A DNA stretch of 64,000 nt from NCBI GenBank assembly GCA_001771585.1, contig MEUE01000001.1, positions 681,984-745,983 on the forward strand. Direction: 5' to 3'. A program made the position numbers and the translations under genes. The stretch is from a candidate division WOR-1 bacterium RIFOXYB2_FULL_46_45. GTDB lineage: Bacteria > Margulisbacteria > WOR-1 > XYC2-FULL-46-14. How positions within the stretch are numbered: position 1 is the first letter of the stretch; each line of letters opens with the position of its first letter. Shown here in pieces: positions 3,870 through 50,254 of this stretch. The notes under the pieces are model-generated. The model was not told the origin of the DNA and made no database searches. It saw nothing but the letters and a program-made list of their open reading frames with translations.

Positions 3870-5096
3870 ATGAGTAAAATACTTCTGTTGACGGAAGGAA
3901 ACCTAAGCAATAATTTTGCCGGCCCGGGAATGAGATACTTCGAATTTGCCCGAGCATTGGCAAAAAAACATCAGGTTACTTTAGCAGGGCTTTCTTTTGA
4001 TCCTGATTTTTCAAGCCCGGACGTTAATGTACTGAAAATCTCTGCTTTTAATGTTATAAACTTGGGGATTAAGATATCAGTCCCAAATTCATTTTTTAGG
4101 AAAGAACTAACAAAATATGACCTAATAATAACCCCCGGAGGAGCGTTGCGTTCGTTTGGTTCGCTTACCAAAATAAAAACACCGATCGCAATTGATCTTT
4201 ACAATCCATGGTTTTTTGAAATGATGTCTTCCGGCCGCAGTCCAAACAAGAAAAAAATAACGCAAAACATAAAGAAAGTTGTTGAAATAATCAAGGAAGG
4301 AAATTATTTTATTTGTGCCAGCTCCAAGCAAAGAGACCTGTATATTGGACTTATGCTGGCGGCAGAAAAAATTGATCCCGAAAAATTAAAAATCGACCCG
4401 CTATTGGAGGATTTAATCGCGGTTGTTCCGACAGGGATCCCTTCTACTCCGCCAAAGGCAAACAAAAAATCCTTAAGAAGCGAGTGTCCGGAAATAAAAG
4501 AATCCGATAAGGTTGTAATTTGGTGGGGCGGGATGTGGGATTGGCTTGACCCGATAACCCTGATAAAAGCAATAGATATAATTTCCCGAAAAAGAAAAGA
4601 CGTTAAACTTGTATTCTTTGGCGCCGACCCTTTAACCGCAAAAGATTTTTCCTCTAAAACTGTCGCGGATTCTGTCGAGCTTTCAAAAAAACTTAACCTT
4701 TATCAAAAACAGATCTATTTTATAAGCCGCTGGATCCCATATGCCGAAAGAGCAAACTGGCTCTTGGATGCCGATATTGGAATTATCTCGCATCACAAAA
4801 GCCTTGAAACCGAGTTTTCCTGGAGAACCCGGGCGATGGATTACCTTTGGGCCGGCCTTCCGATAATAACAACCGAAGGGGACTCCATAGCCGCCCTGGT
4901 AGAAAAACATTCCCTGGGCAGAGTTGTCCCCTATCAAAACGCGAAATCTATGGCGGAAGCAATATTGGCCATTCTGGAAAATCCCCGTGATCACGAAAGA
5001 ATAAAAGAAAACATTCAGAGATTCAGTCCTTCTCTTTATTGGGAAAACATAGTTGTGCCTATCCATAATTTTTGCAAAAAACTAATCCGAAAATGA
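3870..5096 (+). CDS. glycosyltransferase, family 1 (GT4-like)
   Basis: C-terminal domain VVIWWGGMWDWLDP…KLVFFGADP…EFSWRTRAMDYLWAGLPIITTEGDS is typical of GT-B/GT1. Start placed at MSKILLL, 11 nt after a TATAAT at 3854-3859. Confidence 0.55.
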   Translation: MSKILLLTEGNLSNNFAGPGMRYFEFARALAKKHQVTLAGLSFDPDFSSPDVNVLKISAFNVINLGIKISVPNSFFRKELTKYDLIITPGGALRSFGSLTKIKTPIAIDLYNPWFFEMMSSGRSPNKKKITQNIKKVVEIIKEGNYFICASSKQRDLYIGLMLAAEKIDPEKLKIDPLLEDLIAVVPTGIPSTPPKANKKSLRSECPEIKESDKVVIWWGGMWDWLDPITLIKAIDIISRKRKDVKLVFFGADPLTAKDFSSKTVADSVELSKKLNLYQKQIYFISRWIPYAERANWLLDADIGIISHHKSLETEFSWRTRAMDYLWAGLPIITTEGDSIAALVEKHSLGRVVPYQNAKSMAEAILAILENPRDHERIKENIQRFSPSLYWENIVVPIHNFCKKLIRK

Positions 5097-6046
5097 AACA
5101 AGTCAGCATTATAATATTAAACTTCAACGGGCTAGAGCTGCTCAAAAACAATCTTCCGATTCTCGTCAACTGCCTCAAACCAAATATTTCACTTGAAATA
5201 ATAATTGTGGATAACAACTCATCAGATTCGAGCGTTAAGTTTATCAAAGAGGATTTTCCACAAATAAGAGTTTTAGAGCTTAAAGAAAACCACAGCTTTG
5301 GCGAAGCGTTAAACCTTGCCGCCAAAGAAGCAAAAAATGATCTGCTATTGTTCTTAAATAATGACGTGGAAGTATCGGCGGATTTTATTAAGCCATTGAT
5401 TGAACACTTTAAAGACAATCGGGTGTTTGGCGTAACCCCCAAAGTCCTCCGCCCCACCCAGGGGATGATAAACGAATCGGTAATTACCGGCGCCTTTAAG
5501 GGCGGGGTCATCAGCGCCGAATTCTCAATCTCTCAAACCAGAAAAATTCCCGATTATGCCTTTGAAACCTTTTCCGTCTGCGGAGCCGCTATGATGATAG
5601 ATAAAAAAAAGTTTACGGAAATAGGCGGCTTTGATAAGATGCTGCGCCCATTCTACTATGAGGAAACAGATCTATCCTATCGCGCGCTTAAACACGGCTG
5701 GAAGATCTTCTACGAACCGGCCTCTGTTGTTTATCACCAGCACAATCAATCGATCGGCAAATATTTAAAGAAATCGACCGCCTTATGGAGCTACCGAAAA
5801 AACCAATATCTGACCGTCTGGAAAAACATAACCGACCCCTGGTTAATGGCAAGACATATTATTGAAATGGTCATCCCTAAACTGCTAACTCCCAACCTCA
5901 TTGAATGGAAGGCTTTATTTAGCGCACTTATTCAGATTCCGGAGATAATCACCAGAAGAAAAGAACAAAAAAGACATTGTGTTTTATCTGACAAAGAAAT
6001 ATTCCGGCTAGCCTCGGATCAAATTAATAAAATAAGGGGAAGATAA
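5093..6046 (+). CDS. glycosyltransferase family 2
   Basis: VSIIILNFNG…IIIVDNNSSDSS…FLNNDVEV (DXD-type) is a GT-A N-terminal signature. Confidence 0.8.
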   Translation: MKQVSIIILNFNGLELLKNNLPILVNCLKPNISLEIIIVDNNSSDSSVKFIKEDFPQIRVLELKENHSFGEALNLAAKEAKNDLLLFLNNDVEVSADFIKPLIEHFKDNRVFGVTPKVLRPTQGMINESVITGAFKGGVISAEFSISQTRKIPDYAFETFSVCGAAMMIDKKKFTEIGGFDKMLRPFYYEETDLSYRALKHGWKIFYEPASVVYHQHNQSIGKYLKKSTALWSYRKNQYLTVWKNITDPWLMARHIIEMVIPKLLTPNLIEWKALFSALIQIPEIITRRKEQKRHCVLSDKEIFRLASDQINKIRGR

Positions 6047-6736
6047 ATGAATCTGCAAGATTTTTATGACGGAAAATCCGGCAAATACAAGGTCTGTTTT
6101 GATAAATGCAGCGTACTCTCCAAAATGCTAAGTTGGATAGATTCCGGCAAAACCATCCTAGATATTGGATGCGCAGACGGTGCTTTTGGCGCAGAGCTAA
6201 AAAAGAAAGGGAATACGGTATATGGGTTTGAAATTTCAAAATCATCCGCGGAAAAAGCTTCTCATATTCTCGATGGCGTGGTCGTAGGAAACATTGAGAA
6301 AGATACCCTTCCCTATAAAGAAAAAAACTTTGATATTATTATATGCGCTGATGTATTAGAACACTTATATGATCCAACTTCAATATTGATAAAGCTGAAA
6401 AAACATTTAAAAGATGAGGGGAAAATAATAATTTCCATCCCCAACATTGCTCATTCCTCAATAAGACGGGCTCTGTTATTCGGAAGATTTGAATACACTG
6501 ATATAGGATTACTTGATAATTCGCATATTCGGTTTTTCACACTAAATACGGCCAAAAAAATGATAAAAGAAGCAGGATTTAAAATACAAGATTTTGACGC
6601 GACCACTGACTTTAATAAGGCAATAAATTATTATCTAAACGCATTGTTAAAACAACTCCGATGGTCTGTTTTCCCTGGACTCTACGGGTATCAATTTCTC
6701 TTCCTGTTAAACAAAAAAACAACCAATGAATCTTGA
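6047..6736 (+). CDS. class I SAM-dependent methyltransferase
   Basis: Motif I ILDIGCADGAFG and post-I acidic residue (VYGFEIS). Size is typical of small-molecule or sugar methyltransferases. Confidence 0.8.
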   Translation: MNLQDFYDGKSGKYKVCFDKCSVLSKMLSWIDSGKTILDIGCADGAFGAELKKKGNTVYGFEISKSSAEKASHILDGVVVGNIEKDTLPYKEKNFDIIICADVLEHLYDPTSILIKLKKHLKDEGKIIISIPNIAHSSIRRALLFGRFEYTDIGLLDNSHIRFFTLNTAKKMIKEAGFKIQDFDATTDFNKAINYYLNALLKQLRWSVFPGLYGYQFLFLLNKKTTNES

Positions 6737-7697
6737 AAAAATACTCCTCCTCCGCCCCGATATGATCGGGGATTGCGTCCTAATCACCCCCGCTATCACG
6801 CTCTTGCGTAAAAAACACCCCAACGCCCGGATTGCGGTTTTGGCAAGCCCGTATACCAGGGAGATCTTCGCGAATAACCCGGATGTTGACGAGATCATAA
6901 CCGATAAAAAAATACCCGAGAACAAATTTGATATCTCTATCCATTTTTATAACGAGTTCGAATACGCGCTTATGGCAAAAAGGGCAAAAATTCCGGTTCG
7001 GATCGGATCCTCCAACAAGCCCCTGATCGGCTGGCTGTACACCAAACGGATCGATCAAAAATGGACCGATCTTACTCTGCATGAAGTTGAGCATAATTTG
7101 CTTCTGCTCAAAGCTTTGGATGTCGACATCTCAAACCCGCCGCCGCTTAATATCGGGATTCAAAGGACCAAATCAAAAGATTTTACCGTCGGCATACATT
7201 TGGGGACCGGAAAGGGGAATCGTTCCTGGCTGCCGGAAAGGTACGCCGAAGTCGCCGATTATCTGATAAAAAAGCTCCACGCGAAAGTAATTCTGACCGG
7301 ATCGAAAAAAGAGATCGGGCTGGCAGAACATGTCCCCGGCGAAAATCTGGTCGGAAAAACAACACTTGCCGAACTGATTAAAACTATCGCTACTTATGAT
7401 ATTTACATCGGCGTTGATACCGGACCAATGCATATCGCGGCGGCGTTAAAAGTGCCGACCGTCGCGATCTTTCCGACCAAATTCGTAAAACCGAGCGAAT
7501 GGGGCCCGTGGCAGACCCAGCATATCGTTGTCCGCAAAAAAATAAACTGCCGCCGCAGCTGCCTTCCCAAAAAGTGCGAACTGGACGACTGCCTTCTGCA
7601 AATTAAAGCGCAGGACGTTATCGATGCGGTAGAATTACTGCTCAAAGGAAAAACGCACACAAAAGATGATTGGATAAGGATGAATAAAAATGAATAA
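6726..7697 (+). CDS. glycosyltransferase family 9 (ADP-heptose:LPS heptosyltransferase-like)
   Basis: ILLLRPDMIGDCVLITPAITLLRKKHPNARIAVLA is the N-terminal motif of RfaF/RfaC-type heptosyltransferases. C-terminal GVDTGPMHIAAAL motif is also present. Confidence 0.8.
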   Translation: MNLEKILLLRPDMIGDCVLITPAITLLRKKHPNARIAVLASPYTREIFANNPDVDEIITDKKIPENKFDISIHFYNEFEYALMAKRAKIPVRIGSSNKPLIGWLYTKRIDQKWTDLTLHEVEHNLLLLKALDVDISNPPPLNIGIQRTKSKDFTVGIHLGTGKGNRSWLPERYAEVADYLIKKLHAKVILTGSKKEIGLAEHVPGENLVGKTTLAELIKTIATYDIYIGVDTGPMHIAAALKVPTVAIFPTKFVKPSEWGPWQTQHIVVRKKINCRRSCLPKKCELDDCLLQIKAQDVIDAVELLLKGKTHTKDDWIRMNKNE

Positions 7698-41924: not shown

Positions 41925-42113
41925 ATGGCAATTATTAATGTTGTGGTAGAAGACGGTTGCACCGGCTGCGGGTTATGCGAGCAGATCGCTCCGGAGGTTT
42001 TTGAAGTGTCGGACATCGCCAAGGTAAAAGACGGCGTAGTCGTCAGCCAATTCGAAAGTCAAATAAAAGAAGCGGCCGATTCCTGCCCGGTTTCGGTTAT
42101 TAAGATTTCGTAA
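41925..42113 (+). CDS. small ferredoxin (single [4Fe-4S]/[3Fe-4S] cluster type)
   Basis: [28 protein letters not shown]…[13 protein letters not shown] (CxxCxxC…CP). RBS AGGAGG 5 nt upstream of the ATG at 41925. Confidence 0.75.
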
Positions 42114-42918
42114 TTTCCCTTATTCCTTCCCCGACAAAATAGAGCGATAGGACCGTTACAAGGATTAGGATTCCGGGAATAATCGCCATCCACGGGGCAT
42201 CCATCAAGTAGGCCTGCGAATCCATCAGCATATTCCCCCACGATGCCGTCGGCGGCTGGACCCCCAAGCCCAAAAATGATAACGCCGACTCGGTTAAAAT
42301 CGCCCCGGCCATCCCCAGCGTCGCCGCGACAATGATCGGGGCCTGAGCATTGGGAAGAATGTGGCGAAAAATGATCCTGAAATCGGAACAGCCGATCGCG
42401 CGGGCCGCTTCGACATACTGCCGTTCACGCAAAGTCAAAAATTCCCCGCGGACCAGCCGCGCCACCCCCATCCACGAAGTTAAGCCAATTACAATCATGA
42501 CGTTATAGATGCTTGGCGTCAGCATAACCTGGATTGTTAAGATTAAAAAGATCGACGGAAAAGCGAGCATTATATCTACAAAGCGCATGATCAATGCGTC
42601 AAGCAGTCCTCCGTAATAGCCGGAAAGCGCGCCGAGCAATGTCCCTATTAAAATGGCAATTGTTACCGCGACAATGCCAACGGTTAGGGAAATTCTTGCC
42701 CCGTACAGCGTGCGGGAAAAGAGATCACGCCCCAAATCGTCGGTCCCGAACCAATGCTTCAAAGATGGTCCCTGGATTTCTTCCTCTATAATTTCCGACG
42801 GATCATACGGCGCAATTATTGGCGCCGCAATTGCCAATATTACAAAAACAAGTAAGACTATCGCCCCAAATTTACTCTTTTGCATATCTGATCCTCGGAT
42901 CAACAATTGCATATCCAA
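42100..42918 (-). CDS. oligopeptide/dipeptide ABC transporter permease (OppC/DppC-type)
   Basis: 6 TM segments. EAA-like loop …ARAIGCSDFRIIFRHILPNA…. Confidence 0.85.
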   Translation of the reverse strand: MDMQLLIRGSDMQKSKFGAIVLLVFVILAIAAPIIAPYDPSEIIEEEIQGPSLKHWFGTDDLGRDLFSRTLYGARISLTVGIVAVTIAILIGTLLGALSGYYGGLLDALIMRFVDIMLAFPSIFLILTIQVMLTPSIYNVMIVIGLTSWMGVARLVRGEFLTLRERQYVEAARAIGCSDFRIIFRHILPNAQAPIIVAATLGMAGAILTESALSFLGLGVQPPTASWGNMLMDSQAYLMDAPWMAIIPGILILVTVLSLYFVGEGIREITKS

Positions 42919-43783
42919 TATCGGCCAATAAATTCCCCAAAATAATCAGAACCGCCGACATGACCACAATTCCCATAATAACCGGATAGTCGCGGGCAAA
43001 GATCGCCTGCACCCCCAGCCGCCCCATCCCCGGCCAGGCAAAGATCGTCTCTATTATAAACGCCCCGCCGAAGAGATCGGGTAACGATAATCCTAAAATT
43101 GTTACGATTGGGATCAGGGCATTGCGCAGGGCGTGCTTAAAAATTACGACCCGCTCCGGCAAGCCCTTGGCGCGGGCGACTTTTATAAAATCCTGGTTCA
43201 AAACTTCGAGCATCGCCGCCCGCTGGTAGCGGGTCAAGCCGGCGAAACTGCCGATCGACATAGTTATGACCGGAAGAATAATATTCCCGGTGGCGGGGAG
43301 CCAGTGCAGCTTAACCGAAAAGAGGAGCATCAGCATCAGTCCGAGCCAGAAGCTGGGGATGGCCATTCCGGCAAAGGAGAAGAATGTTACCGCATTATCA
43401 AACCGGCTCCCCTTTTTTATGGCGGAGAGGACTCCAAGCGGTATCGCAATCAACAAAGTTAAAACATAAGACAAAACCATCAGCAACAAAGTCATCGGCA
43501 GGCGTTCCATTATCTCCGTAATGACCGGCTGGCCGGTCAAGTAACTGACGCCAAAATTAAGCCGCAGGGCATTCCAAAGCCAGCTGAAGTATTGAATATA
43601 AATCGGTTGATCTAATCCCCAATTGGCTCGTACTCGAACCAATTCCTGCGGATCGACATTCGGGTTTATAAACAACGCGGTCGGATCGCCAGGGGCCAGA
43701 TGCATGACGAAGAAAGAAATCAGGGAAACGCCGATTAGAAGAGGGATCAGCTGAAGTAATCTGTTAATAATATAATGGCGCAT
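42872..43783 (-). CDS. oligopeptide/dipeptide ABC transporter permease (OppB/DppB-type)
   Basis: MRHYIINRLLQLIPLLIGVSLISFFVMHLAPGDP is the canonical OppB N-terminus. EAA loop ARAKGLPERVVIFKHALRNA. Confidence 0.85.
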   Translation of the reverse strand: MRHYIINRLLQLIPLLIGVSLISFFVMHLAPGDPTALFINPNVDPQELVRVRANWGLDQPIYIQYFSWLWNALRLNFGVSYLTGQPVITEIMERLPMTLLLMVLSYVLTLLIAIPLGVLSAIKKGSRFDNAVTFFSFAGMAIPSFWLGLMLMLLFSVKLHWLPATGNIILPVITMSIGSFAGLTRYQRAAMLEVLNQDFIKVARAKGLPERVVIFKHALRNALIPIVTILGLSLPDLFGGAFIIETIFAWPGMGRLGVQAIFARDYPVIMGIVVMSAVLIILGNLLADIGYAIVDPRIRYAKE

Positions 43784-43792
43784 TAAACCTAT

Positions 43793-44197
43793 TTAACCCA
43801 AAGCTGATTCAACCCATAAGATAAATCGTTCGGCATGCAAAACAACTTTTTCGGCTTCGTCTTTCGGAAAACACTTGCCCTCATATTCAATCAGATTTTT
43901 CTTTGCGATAAGGCGGCGCAAATGGTTCAGAGCATCCTTCGCTCCTTCCCTGTTTACCAGGGTGGCGGTTAATCCTATTGCGTCATCGTGACTTTTGCTG
44001 GTACTTCTTACCCCATGCAAACAGGCCAGAAGCGCGTCGTTGGCGGAAATTCCCGAGTGTACCGCGTCCAAACCGGCCGCATTCCAATTTTCCGCTTCCA
44101 GATTATCCTTGGCTGATTTAAAAAAGTCGCGGGCTTTCCTTAAAAAATTGATGGAACTTGATTTTTCTACTTTTGCGGTTTGAAACTTATTGACCAT
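43793..44197 (-). CDS. HEPN-domain protein (toxin of a HEPN/MNT type II toxin-antitoxin pair)
   Basis: Rx4-6H motif GVRSTSKSHDDA in a ~130-aa all-helical protein. Overlaps the upstream MNT gene by 11 nt. Start moved to MVNKFQ (44197) to remove the 110-nt overlap of the tabulated ORF. Confidence 0.65.
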   Translation of the reverse strand: MVNKFQTAKVEKSSSINFLRKARDFFKSAKDNLEAENWNAAGLDAVHSGISANDALLACLHGVRSTSKSHDDAIGLTATLVNREGAKDALNHLRRLIAKKNLIEYEGKCFPKDEAEKVVLHAERFILWVESALG

Positions 44198-44804
44198 ACA
44201 CCAATTCCATAATAGTTTTGCCGTACAACAGGCGGCCGCTTTCAACAATGTTTCTAAAAAAAGCGTTTTTACTCTTATATCTTTTCTTGATCTCATTCAC
44301 CGTGAGCGCCAGCGGCGAAATCCCATTCCCAAATTTTTTGGAAATATCAAAATTAAGATTATCAAATATTTTTTCGGCCGCCTCAAGGTCGGCATTTTGA
44401 GGAAAAACCACCAGCAAATCCAGGTCGCTGTTTTCTCCTTCCTTTCCCGCCGCAACACTGCCAAAAAGAATAATGGAGATAACGCGAGGAAAAGCGTTTT
44501 TAATTTTATCGGAAACCTTTTTCAGGAGTGTTTTTTCAAGTTTAAACAGCGGCAGAAGCGCTTCGGAAACCAGTATGTTTTCCGCGTTGATTCTATAAAG
44601 GTTGGATTTGCCGCTTTTGCGCATCAAAACGATTCCGGACTTAAACAGCGCCAGAAGCGACACATGGACTATCCGTTGCGCCAGGCCGGCCGATCGGGCA
44701 ATCTCTCTGCCGTTTAAATCTTCTCCGCTTTGAGCCAAAACCCTTAAAACCTTGAGCTTTGAACCCTGCCCTATAATACTGTTAAATGTTTGGTGGTAAC
44801 GCAT
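44187..44804 (-). CDS. minimal nucleotidyltransferase (MNT) with N-terminal winged-helix HTH fusion (antitoxin partner of HEPN)
   Basis: NTase motif IILFGSVAAGKEGENSDLDLLVVF (GS…DxD). The N-terminal 80 aa, SKLKVLRVLAQSGEDLNGREIARSAGLAQRIVHVSLLALFKSGIVLMRKSGKSNLYRI, has an ArsR/MarR-like wHTH pattern. Start moved to MRYHQTF (44804). Confidence 0.7.
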   Translation of the reverse strand: MRYHQTFNSIIGQGSKLKVLRVLAQSGEDLNGREIARSAGLAQRIVHVSLLALFKSGIVLMRKSGKSNLYRINAENILVSEALLPLFKLEKTLLKKVSDKIKNAFPRVISIILFGSVAAGKEGENSDLDLLVVFPQNADLEAAEKIFDNLNFDISKKFGNGISPLALTVNEIKKRYKSKNAFFRNIVESGRLLYGKTIMELVYGQ

Positions 44805-44929
44805 GGCTATTTTTGTAGCTATATGGCTACTTTTGTAGTTATTATAATCCAAGCTCAGCCTATTTGTCAAGTGCGAAAAACTGAAATTTCCCCCGGTTTT
44901 TGACGATAATAATATAGGAGGGAAAAGAG

Positions 44930-45688
44930 ATGCCAATGAACGTCCGTTTTAATTTAAGCCGCGGAAGAAGTTTCCTTTATCCTCTTGAAACTCTTCCGGT
45001 CAGGATAGCAACCTATTTAAACAGCGGAATTACAGTTAAAATCGGTTTTAGGCCCGAAGGAATCCTTTTTCACAATTCCGGACAAATAATACCGTCCACG
45101 CAAAGATTTAGCAAAAACTTCTTTCAACAAACATCTATTGCGGAAATATCTTTTAGGCCAAACATCAAAGATCCTTTTGATGGCGGAAAAAGGATCGGGC
45201 TTTTTTTGAGGACTGGCGACTTAAAACACATAAAACCTTTTTTGGGGGATATTGTGATTTTACCTCCCGCAGAACAAATTTTACATGATGCGAAACCAAT
45301 CATAAACACTCCCTTTGAATTAGGAACAATCCCGGGAGAGTTTAAGCATTATACCGACTTTAAAATGTTTTGCGCTATCTTGTCCGAACAAACAATTAAA
45401 GCCTTGGGCGGAAAAAAAGACAGAACTCCAAGATTGTGTTTTACCGACTTAAACCTAACTCCCGACAAGGTGTGCGATTATTTTTTTTCGGGGAGCCAAA
45501 GACATGCCAATGATTCGAGGGGGGATTATGTTTTAGGTTTCGATTTGCCACAAAGAACAAAAAGATTGATGGAGCAACCAAAGCCCGGTTCTCCTGAATA
45601 TTGGTTAAGAGAAAATATTAAATTTGGAGATAACGCGGAATTACGCTTTGCCGGTTATAATCCCTTTGCTTTAAGTGCCGTGGCTTAA
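44930..45688 (+). CDS. hypothetical protein (252 aa), convergent with and overlapping the ADP-ribosylglycohydrolase gene by 18 nt
   Basis: Long ORF with no recognised motifs. The strong RBS at 44920-44927 (GGAGGGAA) lies 2 nt before the tabulated ATG at 44930 and 8 nt before the ATG at 44936 (MNVRF…), so 44936 is the better-supported start. Confidence 0.45.
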   Translation: MPMNVRFNLSRGRSFLYPLETLPVRIATYLNSGITVKIGFRPEGILFHNSGQIIPSTQRFSKNFFQQTSIAEISFRPNIKDPFDGGKRIGLFLRTGDLKHIKPFLGDIVILPPAEQILHDAKPIINTPFELGTIPGEFKHYTDFKMFCAILSEQTIKALGGKKDRTPRLCFTDLNLTPDKVCDYFFSGSQRHANDSRGDYVLGFDLPQRTKRLMEQPKPGSPEYWLRENIKFGDNAELRFAGYNPFALSAVA

Positions 45689-46603
45689 AGAATATAATTT
45701 GTCGGCCTTCCTTAAGATTTCTCTTGCGCCCTCAACCTCTTTCCCCCAATGTTTCGGGATCGCCGCTTCCCCATGATAAGCCCCGCTCATGGCTCCAACC
45801 ATACTGGCAATTGTATCGGTATCTCCTCCGCAAGAAGCCGCTTCAACCAATACATTTTCAAAAGAATCAATAAATCTTAAAAAAAGATAAATACTGCTTC
45901 CAACACTTTCAAATACTATGCCGGAAGTTCCAATTTGCGACAAGGCAACAGAAGGAGACAGGTCTTGCGTCAAAAGATCTCCAACCTGGCGCAATTTATT
46001 AGCCATTTCTGAGTCGTCCCCAATATACCCAGCAGTTTCCCGCAAAATAATATTTTGTTCAAAGGTTGAATTAATTATTTTTGCGGTTATATAGGCGACA
46101 CTCAAACTTCCGTTAATGGCCTCCGGTTGTTTGTGGGTTATCATCGCGACAAGCTCGACATTTCTTTTTAGTTGCTCTAGGTTTGCGTAACTAAAAAGAG
46201 CGATCGGAGCAATGCGCATAGCCGCCCCGTTTCCGAGAGAATTATTGTCTCCAACCATATTCCAGGGCCTTCTCTTTAAAATTCTGGTCAGTGCCGTTAT
46301 GGTTGCTTGGCCAAACCCCCGCCCCAGATCCTTATTTTTTTTGAAAGCCCGGCCAAGATTTAAAGCGATATCGGCGGGATCAAGAGATCTTCTTCTAATC
46401 AAACTATCAACAGTTGCCTGTGTTAGTATGGTGTCGTCGGTTACTTGCCCCGCTCTTAATTTCCCTTTTGGGTGAGAATAAAAACGATCGATCCTTGCTC
46501 CACGGATCATCCCTTCGGCCGGCATACCAAGAGCATCCCCAATGGCAGAACCCAACAAGCATCCGCGAAAACGCTGAATAGGGGTTATATTTCTTATGCT
46601 CAC
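45671..46603 (-). CDS. ADP-ribosylglycohydrolase family protein (DraG/ARH-like)
   Basis: RFRGCLLGSAIGDALGMPAEG…D-rich metal-binding C-terminal motif (…GGDTDTIASMVGAMSGA…) is typical of ARH. Confidence 0.85.
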   Translation of the reverse strand: MSIRNITPIQRFRGCLLGSAIGDALGMPAEGMIRGARIDRFYSHPKGKLRAGQVTDDTILTQATVDSLIRRRSLDPADIALNLGRAFKKNKDLGRGFGQATITALTRILKRRPWNMVGDNNSLGNGAAMRIAPIALFSYANLEQLKRNVELVAMITHKQPEAINGSLSVAYITAKIINSTFEQNIILRETAGYIGDDSEMANKLRQVGDLLTQDLSPSVALSQIGTSGIVFESVGSSIYLFLRFIDSFENVLVEAASCGGDTDTIASMVGAMSGAYHGEAAIPKHWGKEVEGAREILRKADKLYSLSHGT

Positions 46604-46639: not shown

Positions 46640-48229
46640 CTATTTTGCGCGGATATAAACTTTTTCAAGATTAAGGAATAAGCCGGCCGGCCCCGGCTTG
46701 GACAATCCCCCCACCCGTTCGGCTACTCCCTCCATCACCTTCGGATACCAGAGGAAAAGATAGGGCTGGTCTTCGGAAATGAGGCGGTTCAAATTGGCAT
46801 AAATTGTTTTGCGCTCTTTTTTGTCCATCGTCTCCCGTCCTCGATTAAGCAAGCGGTCAACTTCCGGATTATTATAGCCGATAAAATTAAAACCTTTCGG
46901 ATATTGGGAAGAGTGCCAGATTGAATAGGAATCAGGATCAAGCCCCAATGACCACCCCATCAGAACCGCGTCAAATTTTTTGGGGTCAGAGGGCGCGTTC
47001 ACAATTTTTAACAGCGCCGACCATTCCATCACCTGAACTTTTACTTTTATCCCGATTTTTTTATACTGCTGTTGGAGGATCACCGCCGCCTTTTCTCGGT
47101 CTTTGTTCCCCTGGTTTAACAAAATCGTAAATTCAAGTTTTTTCCCTTTCTTCTCAAGAATCCCGTCTTTCCCCAAATTCCATCCGGACTTATTAAGCAT
47201 ATCGGTTGCTATTGCCGGATTGTAGGGAAACTTTTGAATATCATAATCGGAATAAGCCCAGGAGACCGGGGTGGAAGGAGCATATGCCGCTGAACCATGT
47301 CCGCGCAGGACCAGATTGACCAGTTGTTTTTTGTTGGTGGCATAGGCCAGCGCGCGGCGGACATTTTTATCCGCAAAAATCGGGTTTTTCAGGTTAAACC
47401 CCAGATAAGTATACAACAGGGCATCGTATTCAAAAACATTTAAGCCCTTCTTCTCTTTCATGCGGGTATAATCTTTGGCCGGGATCCCGGCATTATCAAC
47501 CTCTCCCGCTTCAAGGGCCACCAACGATGAGTTTTCGTTGGGAATAATTTTAAAAACAATCTCGGCAAGAAGCGGCTTGCCGCCAAAATATTTATCGTTT
47601 CGGATCAGCCGGACATAATTTCCGCTCTTCCACTTGGCGAACTTAAACGGTCCGGTCCCGACCGGCTTGCGGTTAAAGGCGGCGGTATTGATATCTTTCC
47701 CGTCCAATAAATGCTTCGGTAAAATACCCATTCCTATCCGGGAAAGAAAAGGAGCAAACGGTTTTGGAAGAACCGCCTGTATCGTGTATTTATCCGGGAT
47801 CCTAAATTTAATTTCTTTGCCATCTATTATATAATCGGAGCGGCGCACAGAATTAATCCTGGGATCCAAGATCGAATCGAAAGTGAATTTTACATCATCT
47901 GCCGTAAACTTTTTCCCGTCGTGCCAGAAAACATCGTCCCGCAAATAAAAAGTCCAGGTCTTGCCGTCTTTTGAGACCTTCCATGCTTTGGCCAGATCGG
48001 GAATAATTTCTAATTTCTCATTGATCCTGGTTAAGCCATTAAAAATCGGGCCTTCAACTGAACTGGACGAGGAATCGGTGGACAAAATCGGGTTTAGAAC
48101 TGATATTTCACCGCCAAGAGAGAAAGTTAATTTCCCGTTGGGATCGTAATCGGGGAATGGCAGGGATAAGCAGGGAAGAGAAGGGAAGAGAAGGGAAACC
48201 ATAAAGAAACAAATTAGGATTTTAAACAT
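46640..48229 (-). CDS. ABC transporter substrate-binding protein, family 5 (OppA/DppA-like)
   Basis: Signal peptide MFKILICFFMVSLLFPSLP. SBP_bac_5 layout (…YTYLGFNLKNPIFADKNVRRALAYA…). Start moved to MFKIL; the tabulated upstream residues run through GGGAA-repeat DNA. Confidence 0.85.
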   Translation of the reverse strand: MFKILICFFMVSLLFPSLPCLSLPFPDYDPNGKLTFSLGGEISVLNPILSTDSSSSSVEGPIFNGLTRINEKLEIIPDLAKAWKVSKDGKTWTFYLRDDVFWHDGKKFTADDVKFTFDSILDPRINSVRRSDYIIDGKEIKFRIPDKYTIQAVLPKPFAPFLSRIGMGILPKHLLDGKDINTAAFNRKPVGTGPFKFAKWKSGNYVRLIRNDKYFGGKPLLAEIVFKIIPNENSSLVALEAGEVDNAGIPAKDYTRMKEKKGLNVFEYDALLYTYLGFNLKNPIFADKNVRRALAYATNKKQLVNLVLRGHGSAAYAPSTPVSWAYSDYDIQKFPYNPAIATDMLNKSGWNLGKDGILEKKGKKLEFTILLNQGNKDREKAAVILQQQYKKIGIKVKVQVMEWSALLKIVNAPSDPKKFDAVLMGWSLGLDPDSYSIWHSSQYPKGFNFIGYNNPEVDRLLNRGRETMDKKERKTIYANLNRLISEDQPYLFLWYPKVMEGVAERVGGLSKPGPAGLFLNLEKVYIRAK

Positions 48230-48440
48230 TAAAAGAATTCTAACAGGGATGAGGAGGGAATGGAAGGGAAGAGAAGGAATTAGCAAGGATGGAGAGGGAA
48301 TAGGAGGAAACAGAAAGGAAAAACAGGGAACGAAAAAAGAAGAGAGTCCCTGCCCTCCCTGCTCTTCCCTATTATCCCTGTTTTCCCTGCTACTCCCTAT
48401 ATTCCCTACCCTTCCCTTCTATTCCCTTATTTCCCTGTAA
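48151..48440. repeat. array of short CAGGGAA / TTCCCTG-type motifs forming a large imperfect inverted repeat (purine-rich arm 48151-48350, pyrimidine-rich arm 48352-48440)
   Basis: ggcagggataagcagggaagagaagggaagagaagggaaacc … gggaatggaagggaagagaagg … then ccctgccctccctgctcttccctattatccctgttttccctgctactccctatattccctacccttcccttctattcccttatttccctg. Confidence 0.7.
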
Positions 48441-48831
48441 CATAACTTACCCATGTCCCACATTCAGCCATCTTATGCAGGGATTGGAGCTGCTTTTTTA
48501 ATAAAAAAATCGTTTTTCCTGTTAAAGAATCCAGTTCTCTAAATTCATCCTCGGATATTAATCCGTCATCAAAAGAATCTCGAATGTCCCCGCTTAACTC
48601 GGATGCTGAATCATGCGATATGCCCAAATAAACCATATATTTTTTTATTGAACTGTTGCCATATCCTTCCTGAATATTTTGTTTAACAGACCTCGCCGCA
48701 TCCCGCATTTGAGAAACTCTACGCATCTCAATTTTAGAAAATTTCCGGGTAATCTCATATACCAACCTGCGTAATTTGTAGGCATTCTGCCAAACCACTA
48801 ATCTTTCATACCCTTTTCGATCCTCAAACAT
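48427..48831 (-). CDS. four-helix-bundle protein (23S rRNA intervening-sequence protein family, TIGR02436-like)
   Basis: MFEDRKGYERLVVWQNAYKLRRLVYEITRKFSKIEMRRVSQMRDAARSVKQNIQEGYG… shares the Y-x-L-x-V-W-Q-x-A…R-F-P-K-x-E…Q-x-R-R-A-A-x-S-I-x-x-N-I-A-E-G pattern of this family. Start moved to MFEDRK; the upstream 18 codons are repeat DNA. Confidence 0.7.
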   Translation of the reverse strand: MFEDRKGYERLVVWQNAYKLRRLVYEITRKFSKIEMRRVSQMRDAARSVKQNIQEGYGNSSIKKYMVYLGISHDSASELSGDIRDSFDDGLISEDEFRELDSLTGKTIFLLKKQLQSLHKMAECGTWVSYVTGK

Positions 48832-48837
48832 TATAAT

Positions 48838-48885
48838 TCCCTGTTTTCCCTGCTGCTCCCTATATTCCCTGCTCTTCCCTTTCAC
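48838..48885. repeat. second copy of the TTCCCTG-motif block (42-bp near-direct repeat of 48385-48425)
   Basis: ccctgttttccctgctgctccctatattccctgctcttccc versus ccctgttttccctgctactccctatattccctacccttccc. Confidence 0.7.
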
Positions 48886-49301
48886 AGATTCGTCAGATCC
48901 AGAATTTTTGTTTTTCCATCTCTCTTGTATCCGGTTAAAGTATACACTCCCGTTACGTCGTTAAAATCATAAACGATCTTACCCGCCGCGTCGGAATCGG
49001 AATACTCCTTCCCCGTAAAAGGATTCTTGGGAATTGTAACCATATATCCTCCGGGTGAAAGGTAGCTGGTGACCAGCGACGCCACTCCGCAGTTTTTTAC
49101 AACCGGGAAAGTGTTGTTTTCCATGTTATACCCTTCAATCGCGACTTGCAGAGAGTGCATCACCGCTTTCACCGAGGCCTCTTTTGCCCGGTCCTGCGAT
49201 CCCAACAGGTGCGGGACCAGAAAATAGGCCAGCAGACCGATTATCGCGATCACAACCAACATTTCTATCAACGTAAAACCCTTCTTGTTCATTTGTCTCA
49301 C
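48882..49301 (-). CDS. type IV pilin / T2SS pseudopilin-like protein (prepilin N-terminal methylation domain)
   Basis: KKGFTLIEMLVVIAIIGLLAYFLVP is a class III signal peptide (G|FTLIE). Confidence 0.8.
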   Translation of the reverse strand: MRQMNKKGFTLIEMLVVIAIIGLLAYFLVPHLLGSQDRAKEASVKAVMHSLQVAIEGYNMENNTFPVVKNCGVASLVTSYLSPGGYMVTIPKNPFTGKEYSDSDAAGKIVYDFNDVTGVYTLTGYKRDGKTKILDLTNL

Positions 49302-49309
49302 CCCCTTTT

Positions 49310-50254
49310 TTATTTAATTGATTCCATCATTTGGAAGAGCGGTAAAATCATTGCGAACGCGATCACCCCGACTACCCCGCCGACCACAAGCGTCGACGCC
49401 GGTTCAACCAGTGTAACCCATTTCCGCGCCAAATTCTCCGTCTCCTCTTCGTAAAAAAGAGCCGATTGGACCAAAACTTCACAGAGCGATCCGCTCTCCT
49501 CCCCCACCCGTATTATCTCAAAAAACTCGGCCGGAAAAAGCGATCGATTATCCAGGCAGTCGGAAAATTTGCTCCCCTGCTCCAAAGAACGGGCGATTGA
49601 ATTAAGCGCCGCGGAATAAACGGGGCTTCCCAGGTTTTCCGCAACCATCCGCAGGGCGGAGAGGATCGGGACATTGCTTTTGAGCTGATAGCCGAGCCCG
49701 CGGCAAAGGCGCGCCAGAATTATATTCCGATAAAAGGGGAACTTTAGTTTGAAGGCTTCACTTTTAAACAGTTTCCAGGCCGTAAGGCCAATTGCAAAAA
49801 GAAAAAAAATAGGTAAAAACCACCAGTTTGAAACCTTAAGTAAAAGCCGGGTCAAAAGCGGAAGCTCATAATCAAATTCGGAAAAGATTCCCGCAAAAGT
49901 CGGCAGGATAAAGACCAATAAAAATATAATTGAAACCAAACTGACCGAGAGGACGATCGTCGGATACATCAGCGCTTTTTTTATCTTGTCGCGGGATACA
50001 ATCTCCGCTTCCAGGCGGCGGGCAACCCGGCCCAGGGCGTCTTCCAGATTACCGCTTTGTTCCCCCGCCCCAATCAGCGCCAAATCTTCCGCCGGAAAAC
50101 CGGCGGCTCGCAGGGAGTCGCTCAAAGTGATCCCATTTTCCAAAGATGCAACAATATCTTTTTTGTTAAGGATTGAAAGAGCCTTTGAAATCGGCAGGCC
50201 GGCGGAAAGCAGGCCCAGCAGTTGCTTATAAAAACTTAAAAAGCGTCCGCGCAT
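49310..50254 (-). CDS. type II secretion / type IV pilus platform protein, GspF/PilC family (short form)
   Basis: T2SSF-domain layout with 3 TM segments and …VGEESGSL… motif. 314 aa, which is shorter than canonical two-domain PilC. Confidence 0.7.
   Translation of the reverse strand: MRGRFLSFYKQLLGLLSAGLPISKALSILNKKDIVASLENGITLSDSLRAAGFPAEDLALIGAGEQSGNLEDALGRVARRLEAEIVSRDKIKKALMYPTIVLSVSLVSIIFLLVFILPTFAGIFSEFDYELPLLTRLLLKVSNWWFLPIFFLFAIGLTAWKLFKSEAFKLKFPFYRNIILARLCRGLGYQLKSNVPILSALRMVAENLGSPVYSAALNSIARSLEQGSKFSDCLDNRSLFPAEFFEIIRVGEESGSLCEVLVQSALFYEEETENLARKWVTLVEPASTLVVGGVVGVIAFAMILPLFQMMESIK

Follow-up and report, generated by a model that had tools for sequence, protein, structure and literature searches.

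The region analysed here lies in a 64,000-nucleotide stretch of DNA (the window; positions 681,984 to 745,983 of the forward strand of contig MEUE01000001.1, assembly GCA_001771585.1) from the candidate division WOR-1 bacterium RIFOXYB2_FULL_46_45. It contains a gene of the four-helix-bundle (4HB) family, also known as 23S rRNA intervening sequence (IVS) or Avd-like proteins, which stands, together with arrays of short repeats, between the genes of a pseudopilin and of the solute-binding protein OppA. All genes of the region are on the minus strand, and coordinates are those of the window. In the direction of transcription the gene order is T2SS-F (49310-50254), the pseudopilin gene as upstream host (48882..49301; PF07963 N_methyl, 2.3e-9; the T2SSG match is weak), the 4HB gene (48427..48831; identified with the PF05635 and TIGR02436 profiles), the downstream host oppA, which encodes a family-5 solute-binding protein (SBP_bac_5, 46640..48229; PF00496, 1.5e-104), and an ADP-ribosylglycohydrolase gene.

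Directly between the pilin stop codon (48882-48884), which marks the left boundary of the insertion discussed below, and the start of the 4HB gene there are five AGGGA units spaced by 10, 9, 10 and 9 nt (48838..48880, the 5' arm). A second G-rich array of ten AGGGA units (48347..48437), a direct repeat of the 5' arm, overlaps the final codons and the stop codon of the 4HB gene and makes up the 5' half of an inner hairpin that encloses no gene. The apical loop of this hairpin, read from the sequence and the predicted fold, has 16 nt (48331..48346, CUCUCUUCUUUUUUCG), and its 3' half is a degenerate C-rich array of about nine UCCCU/UCCUU units (48245..48330). Next come a non-repeat spacer of 48 nt (48197..48244), which contains the current oppA start (ATG 48229-48227; alternative start 48202), and the 3' arm (48153..48196). 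The latter has four TCCCT units and one TCCCC, is complementary to the 5' arm and lies within oppA codons. On the plus strand the TCCCT cores follow each other at 9-10 nt, ten of them in 48347-48437 and five in 48838-48880. An earlier interpretation of the bare sequence (the sequence-only reading) had described near-identical blocks bracketing the 4HB gene. The blocks are indeed 93% identical, but both have 44 nt and the left one, reported at 48385-48425, is situated one unit further left, at 48375-48418 (its partner at 48838-48881). The mirror arm of CAGGGAA motifs proposed for 48151-48350 also exists, but as two pieces, 48153-48197 with 4-5 units and 48245-48330 with about nine degenerate ones, which are parted by the repeat-free segment 48198-48244.

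The motif TTCCCTG occurs 20 times in the 64-kb window (10.8 +/- 3.3 expected), and seven of the 20 copies fall into the 735-bp region. When the window was scanned with a detector of period-9-11 arrays, this locus was the sole real cluster, accompanied by one AT-rich chance hit. Because the identical locus was found in 18 independently assembled contigs, including GCA_001771695.1 and a contig of 1.63 Mb, an assembly artefact was ruled out. The long hairpin potential suspected from the sequence was borne out by secondary structure prediction: the minus strand of 48140-48445 folded with -105.6 kcal/mol (shuffled sequences -84.3 +/- 5.1, z -4.2) and that of 48140-48900 with -250.2 kcal/mol (z -3.2). 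The predicted minimum free energy structure is nested, with 48838-48880 pairing with 48153-48196 and the ten-unit G-array pairing with the degenerate C-array 48245-48330. No Rfam 15 model matched at its gathering score (the best reached 32 bits against 85, and the models concerned were unrelated microRNA-precursor hairpins). Scans of the locus for promoters and terminators gave chance-level results, weak terminator-like matches at 48331..48346 being no commoner than chance. An rRNA scan of 47900-49100 gave no match; the element is not within a 23S or 16S rRNA helix.

The 4HB gene starts at the ATG at 48831, ends at 48427 and codes for 134 aa; the sequence-only reading had recognized the gene and its family and counted one codon too many (135 aa). 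Its product matched PF05635 (E 3.3e-20, 72.7 bits, cut-off 33.8) with residues 10-110 aligned to profile positions 1-102 of 106, and TIGR02436 (E 1.7e-17, 63.6 bits, cut-off 24). It is similar in sequence to PDB entry 2gsc (XCC0516, five chains; E 1.7e-7), which suggests that it may form a homopentameric toroid. The window protein carries the signature SQMRDAARSVKQNIQEG, and the subfamily form SQMRDAARS(V/I)KQNIQEG was invariant in 120 of 120 homologues. The protein conforms to the conserved family motif R..S...N..EG, published as GxxRxxxSxxxNxxE (PMC3936711), with the S, N, E and G residues in register and the R one position off. Among relatives, the ratio of nonsynonymous to synonymous substitution rates (dN/dS) of the 4HB gene was 0.07-0.10 where dS was measurable; the gene is thus under strong purifying selection and is not decaying. 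Although synonymous positions have reached saturation in comparisons of the window with its relatives (pS 0.83-0.98), the cores of both arms and the spacing of their units have been kept. None of the PADLOC and PHROGs families gave a match at E <= 0.01. The IVS-protein/4HB family is very large and widespread, and we know of no function for it outside the Avd proteins of diversity-generating retroelements (DGRs).

The OppA protein has 529 aa in the NCBI gene call and 520 aa in the ENA call; an orthologue (P0122) that begins with MIKFLTCILIF.. favours the longer form. The N-terminus of the window protein is MFKILICFFMVSLLFPSLPCLSLPFP, in which the 3' arm codes for the residues ..SLLFPSLPCLSLPFP and terminates just ahead of the conserved DYDPNG. 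The TCCCT core of the arm occurs in all three reading frames of oppA (as SL, FP and LP(C)), so the conserved feature is a nucleic acid repeat and not a peptide repeat. The sequence-only reading was right that an arm also encodes the Ser/Leu/Pro-rich start of OppA. Its suspicion that the N-terminal extensions of the two open reading frames (ORFs) are repeat-encoded artefacts applies to the longest forms: the 152-aa 4HB form starting with GTG, the one adopted by gene callers, reads through the 5' arm, although homologues begin about 5-9 residues before the conserved GY(E/K)(K/R)L, and the 548-aa oppA form starting with TTG (46640-48286) reads through the degenerate C-array. It does not apply to the S/L/P-rich peptide encoded by 48153-48196, which is no artefact but the predicted signal-peptide region of OppA, common to about a dozen orthologues.

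Comparison of orthologous pilin-oppA junctions

OppA orthologues from Saganbacteria and Margulisiibacteriota had three types of N-terminus. These export signals of one clade (P0121-P0240) are unrelated: there are lipoproteins with a lipobox (..LAGCAGP..), proteins with a classical Sec signal (..LICSLLL.AA.A) and proteins with the S/L/P-rich, repeat-encoded start. Wherever the DNA itself was inspected (the window and loci L007-L010, L015 and L041), the last type coincides with a TCCCT array within the signal-peptide codons and with an insertion behind the pilin gene.

Several related junctions bear on the origin of this arrangement. In a sister lineage (L042/L043) with the gene order MetRS-TatD-T2SSF-pilin-oppA, the 3' end of the pilin gene and the start of oppA share 38 nt, and the junction contains neither a 4HB gene nor repeats. 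The junction is likewise empty in L039/L040, which encode the second-closest OppA orthologue (76% identity); there a 119-aa PF05635/bAvd gene with short complementary arms is found one spacer upstream, between T2SSF and pilin. In L041, which encodes the closest orthologue (78% identity), the pilin-oppA slot is filled by a gene for a 203-aa Bro-N protein (L041 2304-3100), flanked on one side by a degenerate G-rich remnant and on the other by the TCCCT array of the OppA signal-peptide codons, as if cargo had been exchanged within the same arms. On the evidence of the empty L042/L043 site, of the 4HB gene in the next spacer in L039/L040 and of Bro-N in the slot in L041, the element is an insertion at the pilin-oppA junction. 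The proposal of an inserted selfish or regulatory module is supported by the empty site, for which it had suggested a comparison of related genomes, by the independent 4HB insertion in L039/L040 and by the predicted nested hairpins. The locus would then be a clear case of repeat DNA recruited as signal-peptide coding sequence after an insertion had destroyed the original one.

The simple form of the arrangement (pilin, five G units, 4HB, oppA with the C-array in the signal peptide) is present in L007 and L008, and in L009, L010 and L015 extra ORFs separate the 4HB gene from the oppA C-array, which means that the slot gathers cargo. These ORFs are all unannotated: two of 105 and 182 aa in L009 (4496-5857), one of 323 aa on the reverse strand in L010 (4531-5502) and one of 213 aa in L015 (4522-5163). 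The idea that the new 5' end of oppA was copied from the pilin 3' end or from the old oppA start, that is, a long target duplication, was rejected because the similarity was not significant in the window, L007, L008 or L041 (p 0.08-0.96).

Downstream of the element the opp operon itself is split, oppA being separated from oppB/oppC (about 42100-43783, coordinates mapped from L001) by the ADP-ribosylglycohydrolase gene (45671-46603), a 252-aa ORF on the plus strand without a Pfam hit (44930-45688) and a nucleotidyltransferase/HEPN pair (about 43793-44852) that resembles an MNT-HEPN toxin-antitoxin insertion. A 20-nt unit, ATGGCTACTTTTGTAGCTAT, occurs in two copies of 90% identity at 44803-44842, in the 5'-terminal part of the nucleotidyltransferase gene region. 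This repeat is not related to the AGGGA arrays.

Arrays around relatives of the 4HB gene

Relatives of the 4HB protein with 45-72% identity were collected from 32 loci in species-representative genomes and 80 loci in metagenomes. They were sampled by similarity to one protein and cover mainly one subfamily. Their hosts are Saganbacteria, Margulisiibacteriota, Omnitrophota, WOR-3, Patescibacteria, Planctomycetia and metagenome-assembled genomes (MAGs) labelled Gammaproteobacteria. Units were counted by a simple rule that chains G-runs or C-runs, arms were compared by alignment-based arm scores, and the quantitative set consisted of 100 distinct genes with full flanks. Two other measures were abandoned. 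RNAduplex energies of 150 x 260-nt flanks were barely discriminated from those of shuffled sequences and were replaced by the arm scores, and 6-mers shared between arms had too noisy a background, partly due to other arrays in the same loci.

On inspection by eye, the ORF was preceded by an array and followed by the complement of that array in all 32 genome loci. Among the 100 genes, arrays were detected upstream in 72, downstream in 84 and on both sides in 65, in comparison to about one chance array in the 64-kb window. The co-occurrence of array and 4HB gene for which the sequence-only reading had proposed a search is thus strongly positive across phyla. The period is mostly 10 nt (52 upstream and 60 downstream arrays) or 9 nt (11 and 15); a period-7 class occurs among divergent paralogues. 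An inverted arm score of at least 34 was obtained for 76 genes and a direct score of at least 34 for 16; these 16, which include the window, have a G-4HB-G layout. Mean inverted and direct scores were 41.7 and 27.3 in the 100 relatives, and 43.4 and 24.1 in a comparison of 33 loci. Unit sequences vary by lineage (AGGGA, GGGTTAG, GGGTGAAGAA, CGGTTACCAA, GCAGGAAAGC), and still the arms within a locus match: the cognate arm ranked among the top three of 33 in 17 of the 33 loci and among the top five in 22. The upstream arm is the G-rich and the downstream arm the C-rich one, and this polarity is practically never reversed. Five units are the sharp mode of the G arms (27 of 85; four units in 12, six in 3), while C arms had four units in 20 cases and five in 22, and control segments 0-2. 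The same loci also contain hairpins without a gene, in which a G-array is directly followed by a C-array (11 cases, none in the order C to G), again with 4-5 units per arm. One Planctomycetia MAG (L014) has three such G5/C5 hairpins of the GGGGTTAGCA type (4994-5164, 6393-6559 and 7402-7568), about 1.0-1.4 kb apart and downstream of the 4HB cassette, which resemble miniature inverted-repeat transposable elements (MITEs).

Neighbouring genes are mostly co-directional with the 4HB gene (75 of 81 upstream, 63 of 74 downstream), and among 99 close relatives the flanking genes form at least 77 different pairs. For the AGGGA-type elements the spacers, identified from the sequences of the flanking proteins and not from profiles, are pilin/oppA, GAPDH/RpiB, RnfG/RnfE, Mnh and CoxM/CoxS-like. 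The architecture recurs in more divergent PF05635 paralogues, built from other units (GTCGCCA, AACGTGA, CAAGTTAA, TAGGGTT). One divergent paralogue (L201, 200-900) is flanked by TAGGGTA/TAGGGTT heptamers, which contain the telomere-type hexamer TTAGGG. The upstream array has about nine units, and on the downstream side about five direct units precede inverted ones of the CCCTAA type. On a plasmid of the cultured cyanobacterium Pseudanabaena galeata (NZ_CP112875.1, 46040-46730; L164, 2270-2960) the cas6 and cas4 genes of a type I-D CRISPR-Cas operon are separated by a 4HB gene. Heptamer arrays flank this gene, 15 copies of AAAAGCT and 9 of AAAAGCC, and an inverted TAGCTTT array is found upstream. 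Such insertions among cas genes, or the scoring of arrays as CRISPR-like, could be the reason why lists of 'CRISPR-associated' genes include 23S_rRNA_IVP.

A search with the motif only (four AGGGA units of period 9-10) in viral contigs returned 120 loci, all of them plain perfect tandem repeats without a 4HB gene; an inverted partner was present in one of 60. The motif itself, including the TTCCCTG form emphasized by the sequence-only reading, is therefore not diagnostic. What defines the element is a degenerate array and its inverted complement hugging an ORF. At many loci ORF calls run through the arrays, giving fused ORFs of 280-540 aa in L014, L028 and L037 and C-array extensions on downstream genes. 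Over-extension of ORFs is a systematic annotation artefact around these cassettes; at the present locus it inflates the ORFs on both sides, and the arrays could also be confused with CRISPR-like repeats.

Interpretation of the arms

The element is probably an IVS-like cassette residing in an operon, whose arms pair in the transcript and whose 3' arm has been recruited as the signal peptide of OppA. According to this interpretation an old insertion brought in an IVS-type cassette, consisting of a conserved and presumably expressed PF05635 Avd-like gene that is hugged by two arms, each with about five units of 9-10 nt. The units are of the AGGGA type in the upstream arm and of the complementary TCCCT type in the downstream arm. 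On this view the cassette landed directly after the pilin stop codon, inside an oppA 5' end that formerly overlapped the pilin gene, and severed the old signal peptide, a replacement being built from the spacer ATG and the 3' arm. The second, gene-less hairpin (ten G units, about nine C units) is most likely the product of a duplication of the 5' arm or of a recombination event involving it. Co-transcribed with the host operon, the arms would form a long imperfect stem looping out the 4HB ORF. Such a stem may be the cis element through which the cassette is able to survive in transcribed DNA, by affecting RNA processing or stability, by controlling 4HB translation, or both, and the arms would be the likely ligand of the putatively pentameric protein. 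The notion of a co-transcribed cassette in an mRNA operon draws on the precedent of the Coxiella 23S IVS, where RNase III cleaves a terminal stem of 28 bp whose loop contains a homologous ORF (PMC4990558), and on the PF05635 ORFs that also occur in rRNA insertions of candidate phyla radiation (CPR) bacteria (bioRxiv 10.1101/2024.02.27.582315).

Several observations weigh against this interpretation. The arms are only 63-82% complementary and the mismatches are mostly transversions in the 2-4-nt spacers, so that the stem would be a chain of short helices and a poor canonical substrate of RNase III; cleavage of the outer stem would, moreover, cut within the oppA coding region. Complementarity specific to the register was weak when unit order was shuffled (mean z 0.68, window 0.1), and the excess of mismatches compatible with G.U pairing on the sense strand was small (144 versus 108, p 0.027). 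For this reason neither test was retained: shuffling gave a weak signal for a fixed pairing register overall and none in the window, and the G.U bias, as a proof of selection at the RNA level, is weak and confounded by transcription-linked mutation bias. Neither a target-site duplication nor a recombinase was found at the loci examined, so that the distribution alone argues for mobility, and there is no further copy of the element within the 64-kb window.

The arms could also be primarily arrays of protein-binding sites for the 4HB pentamer with the hairpin being incidental, a model that we regard as a minority view, possibly complementary to the cassette interpretation. About five spaced cores per arm would meet five identical subunits or inter-subunit crevices, much as TRAP reads spaced triplets, and the protein would autoregulate its cassette or mark it as RNA or DNA. 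The sharp five-unit mode of the G arms, the 4-5 units of C arms and gene-less hairpins, and the invariant subfamily signature are in keeping with this model, as are the conserved cores with freely varying spacers and the weak register-specific pairing. The nearest solved homologue matched, 2gsc, was deposited with five chains, and cryo-EM of the homologous Avd pentamer showed all five protomers in contact with an RNA stem-loop (bioRxiv 10.1101/2023.10.23.563531). The model does not need the inverted orientation of the two arms, however, and some loci have 7-14 units, the Pseudanabaena cassette even 15 and 9 heptamers. The counts depend on the simple G-run chaining rule, and the mean spacing of 9.5 nt is unlike a helical repeat. 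We consider it improbable that the arms are instead recombination sites, comparable to integron attC hairpins or transposon subterminal repeats, at which a trans-acting recombinase inserts, excises or swaps cargo in operon spacers, with 4HB as the commonest cargo. Such a system would account for the many insertion contexts and for the varied contents of one slot (4HB alone, 4HB with other ORFs, Bro-N). It would also predict the G-4HB-G layout, as the product of recombination between a G-array and a cassette, and gene-less hairpins resembling leftovers of deletions between direct arrays. It is at odds with the lack of an integrase or transposase beside any locus examined and of a defined crossover site or target duplication, and the strong bias towards the orientation of host transcription and the fixed place of the 4HB gene by the G arm fit a constraint at the level of RNA or expression better.

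It is very unlikely that the arrays are functionless, slippage-prone and microsatellite-like, with complementarity left over from a past inverted duplication and the 4HB gene an ordinary vertically inherited gene. Slippage can expand tandem 9-10-nt repeats, plain AGGGA repeats are common elsewhere without 4HB genes, and the window has a single locus in 64 kb; but random unit numbers and rapid decay would be predicted, whereas the distribution of arm lengths is tight and the cores persist despite saturated synonymous sites. Motifs differ among phyla with both arms changing together, an array is kept even inside a coding region in all three frames, and the empty sites and the at least 77 contexts are equally hard to reconcile with such an origin. 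The lowest probability was assigned to a switch in which the G3N7 arm folds into a G-quadruplex or sequesters ribosomes as a Shine-Dalgarno mimic, and the C arm acts as a rut-like Rho-loading site masked by the G arm. Most arms do fit (G3+N6-7)x4-5 and (C3+N6-7)x4-5, and their polarity is fixed relative to transcription, but the arms of divergent subfamilies (GTCGCCA, AACGTGA, CAAGTTAA, CGGTTACCAA, AAAAGCT) are not G-rich. G-richness is therefore not the conserved property, and quadruplex, Shine-Dalgarno mimicry and rut function were discarded as a general principle; in addition, the 3' arm is translated here, which would block the loading of Rho.

Beyond the IVS-like cassette interpretation preferred here, a more speculative extension deserves mention. 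We offer it tentatively and do not expect it to hold in full: the PF05635 pentamer may be a repeat-reading ring, the five-unit arm of its own cassette being the cognate ligand. Each subunit or crevice would read one unit, as Avd holds flipped-out RNA bases, and the cassettes would be self-recognizing (ribo)nucleoprotein elements spreading among the spacers of operons and in rRNA genes, the free-living stock from which rRNA IVS ORFs and the partnership of DGR Avd with its RNA derive. If true, this would give a first function to a family that has been without one since its discovery in rRNA intervening sequences, and would establish small mobile elements that lack a recognizable transposase as a new class.

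The 4HB family recurs as an unexplained 'associated' gene, in rRNA genes, between cas genes and in CRISPR-linked lists, and published mentions describe its protein as rRNA-IVS-encoded, Avd-like or 'CRISPR-associated'. The common anatomy of the non-rRNA members, with inverted arms of about five units, co-directional spacer sites and gene-less derivatives, ties them to the rRNA IVS as one kind of element, and the five-unit arms provide a concrete candidate ligand for the protein. Intervening sequences of rRNA are already known. No description of repeat-array arms around non-rRNA 4HB genes was found in the open-access literature, earlier mention elsewhere being possible, and the operon-spacer form with arrayed arms seems to be undescribed.

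Comparison with known systems

The closest counterparts are the rRNA IVSs, found in 23S and 16S genes of Leptospira, Coxiella, Xanthomonas and CPR bacteria. Like the window element they encode a PF05635 protein, have the ORF in the loop of a terminal-inverted-repeat stem (predicted and imperfect in the window), lie in sense orientation inside a transcribed region and are sporadically distributed. In Coxiella the ORF is also immediately preceded by tandem heptamers, the number of which varies (PMC4990558). The differences are that the host site in the window is a spacer between protein-coding genes of an operon and not an rRNA helix, and that each arm is an array with about five units of 9-10 nt instead of one side of a near-perfect 28-bp stem. 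Moreover, strong purifying selection acts on the window ORF, while that of Coxiella is not translated and is in decay. Excision by RNase III could be proposed for the window element by analogy, but here it would cut oppA.

DGR Avd is a homologous pentameric 4HB barrel that binds a structured RNA encoded next to its own gene. In its cryo-EM structure all five protomers hold an adjacent RNA stem-loop, with flipped-out bases in the inter-protomer crevices (bioRxiv 10.1101/2023.10.23.563531), and the L039 paralogue is co-hit by PF22296 bAvd. In contrast to DGRs, no reverse transcriptase (RT), template repeat/variable repeat (TR/VR) pair or target gene was found beside the window gene or at the related loci examined: the window gene is surrounded by those of T2SS-F, pilin, OppA and ADP-ribosylglycohydrolase, no RT domain is encoded by the genes called in L001-L003, and the repeats at the locus are short tandem arrays. 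The RNA flanking the window gene is a repeat array and not an Sp-type stem-loop.

Repetitive extragenic palindromes and bacterial interspersed mosaic elements (REP/BIME), the Correia/NEMIS MITEs and the short tandemly repeated repetitive (STRR) heptamer arrays of cyanobacteria are short, hairpin-forming, co-transcribed and intergenic. The gene-less copies of the present arms resemble them, and the Pseudanabaena cassette is flanked by STRR-like heptamers. Unlike these elements, the present arms consist of tandem sub-repeats with a modal number of five, and the form that looks autonomous carries a conserved gene that is neither a transposase nor a RAYT (REP-associated tyrosine transposase). Integron cassettes, finally, share with the present elements small size, lack of a promoter, co-directional orientation, imperfect palindromic ends and exchangeable cargo. 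They differ in having an integrase and an attI platform, neither of which is present here; the elements described above have arms on both sides of the ORF, and their insertion sites are scattered in housekeeping operons.

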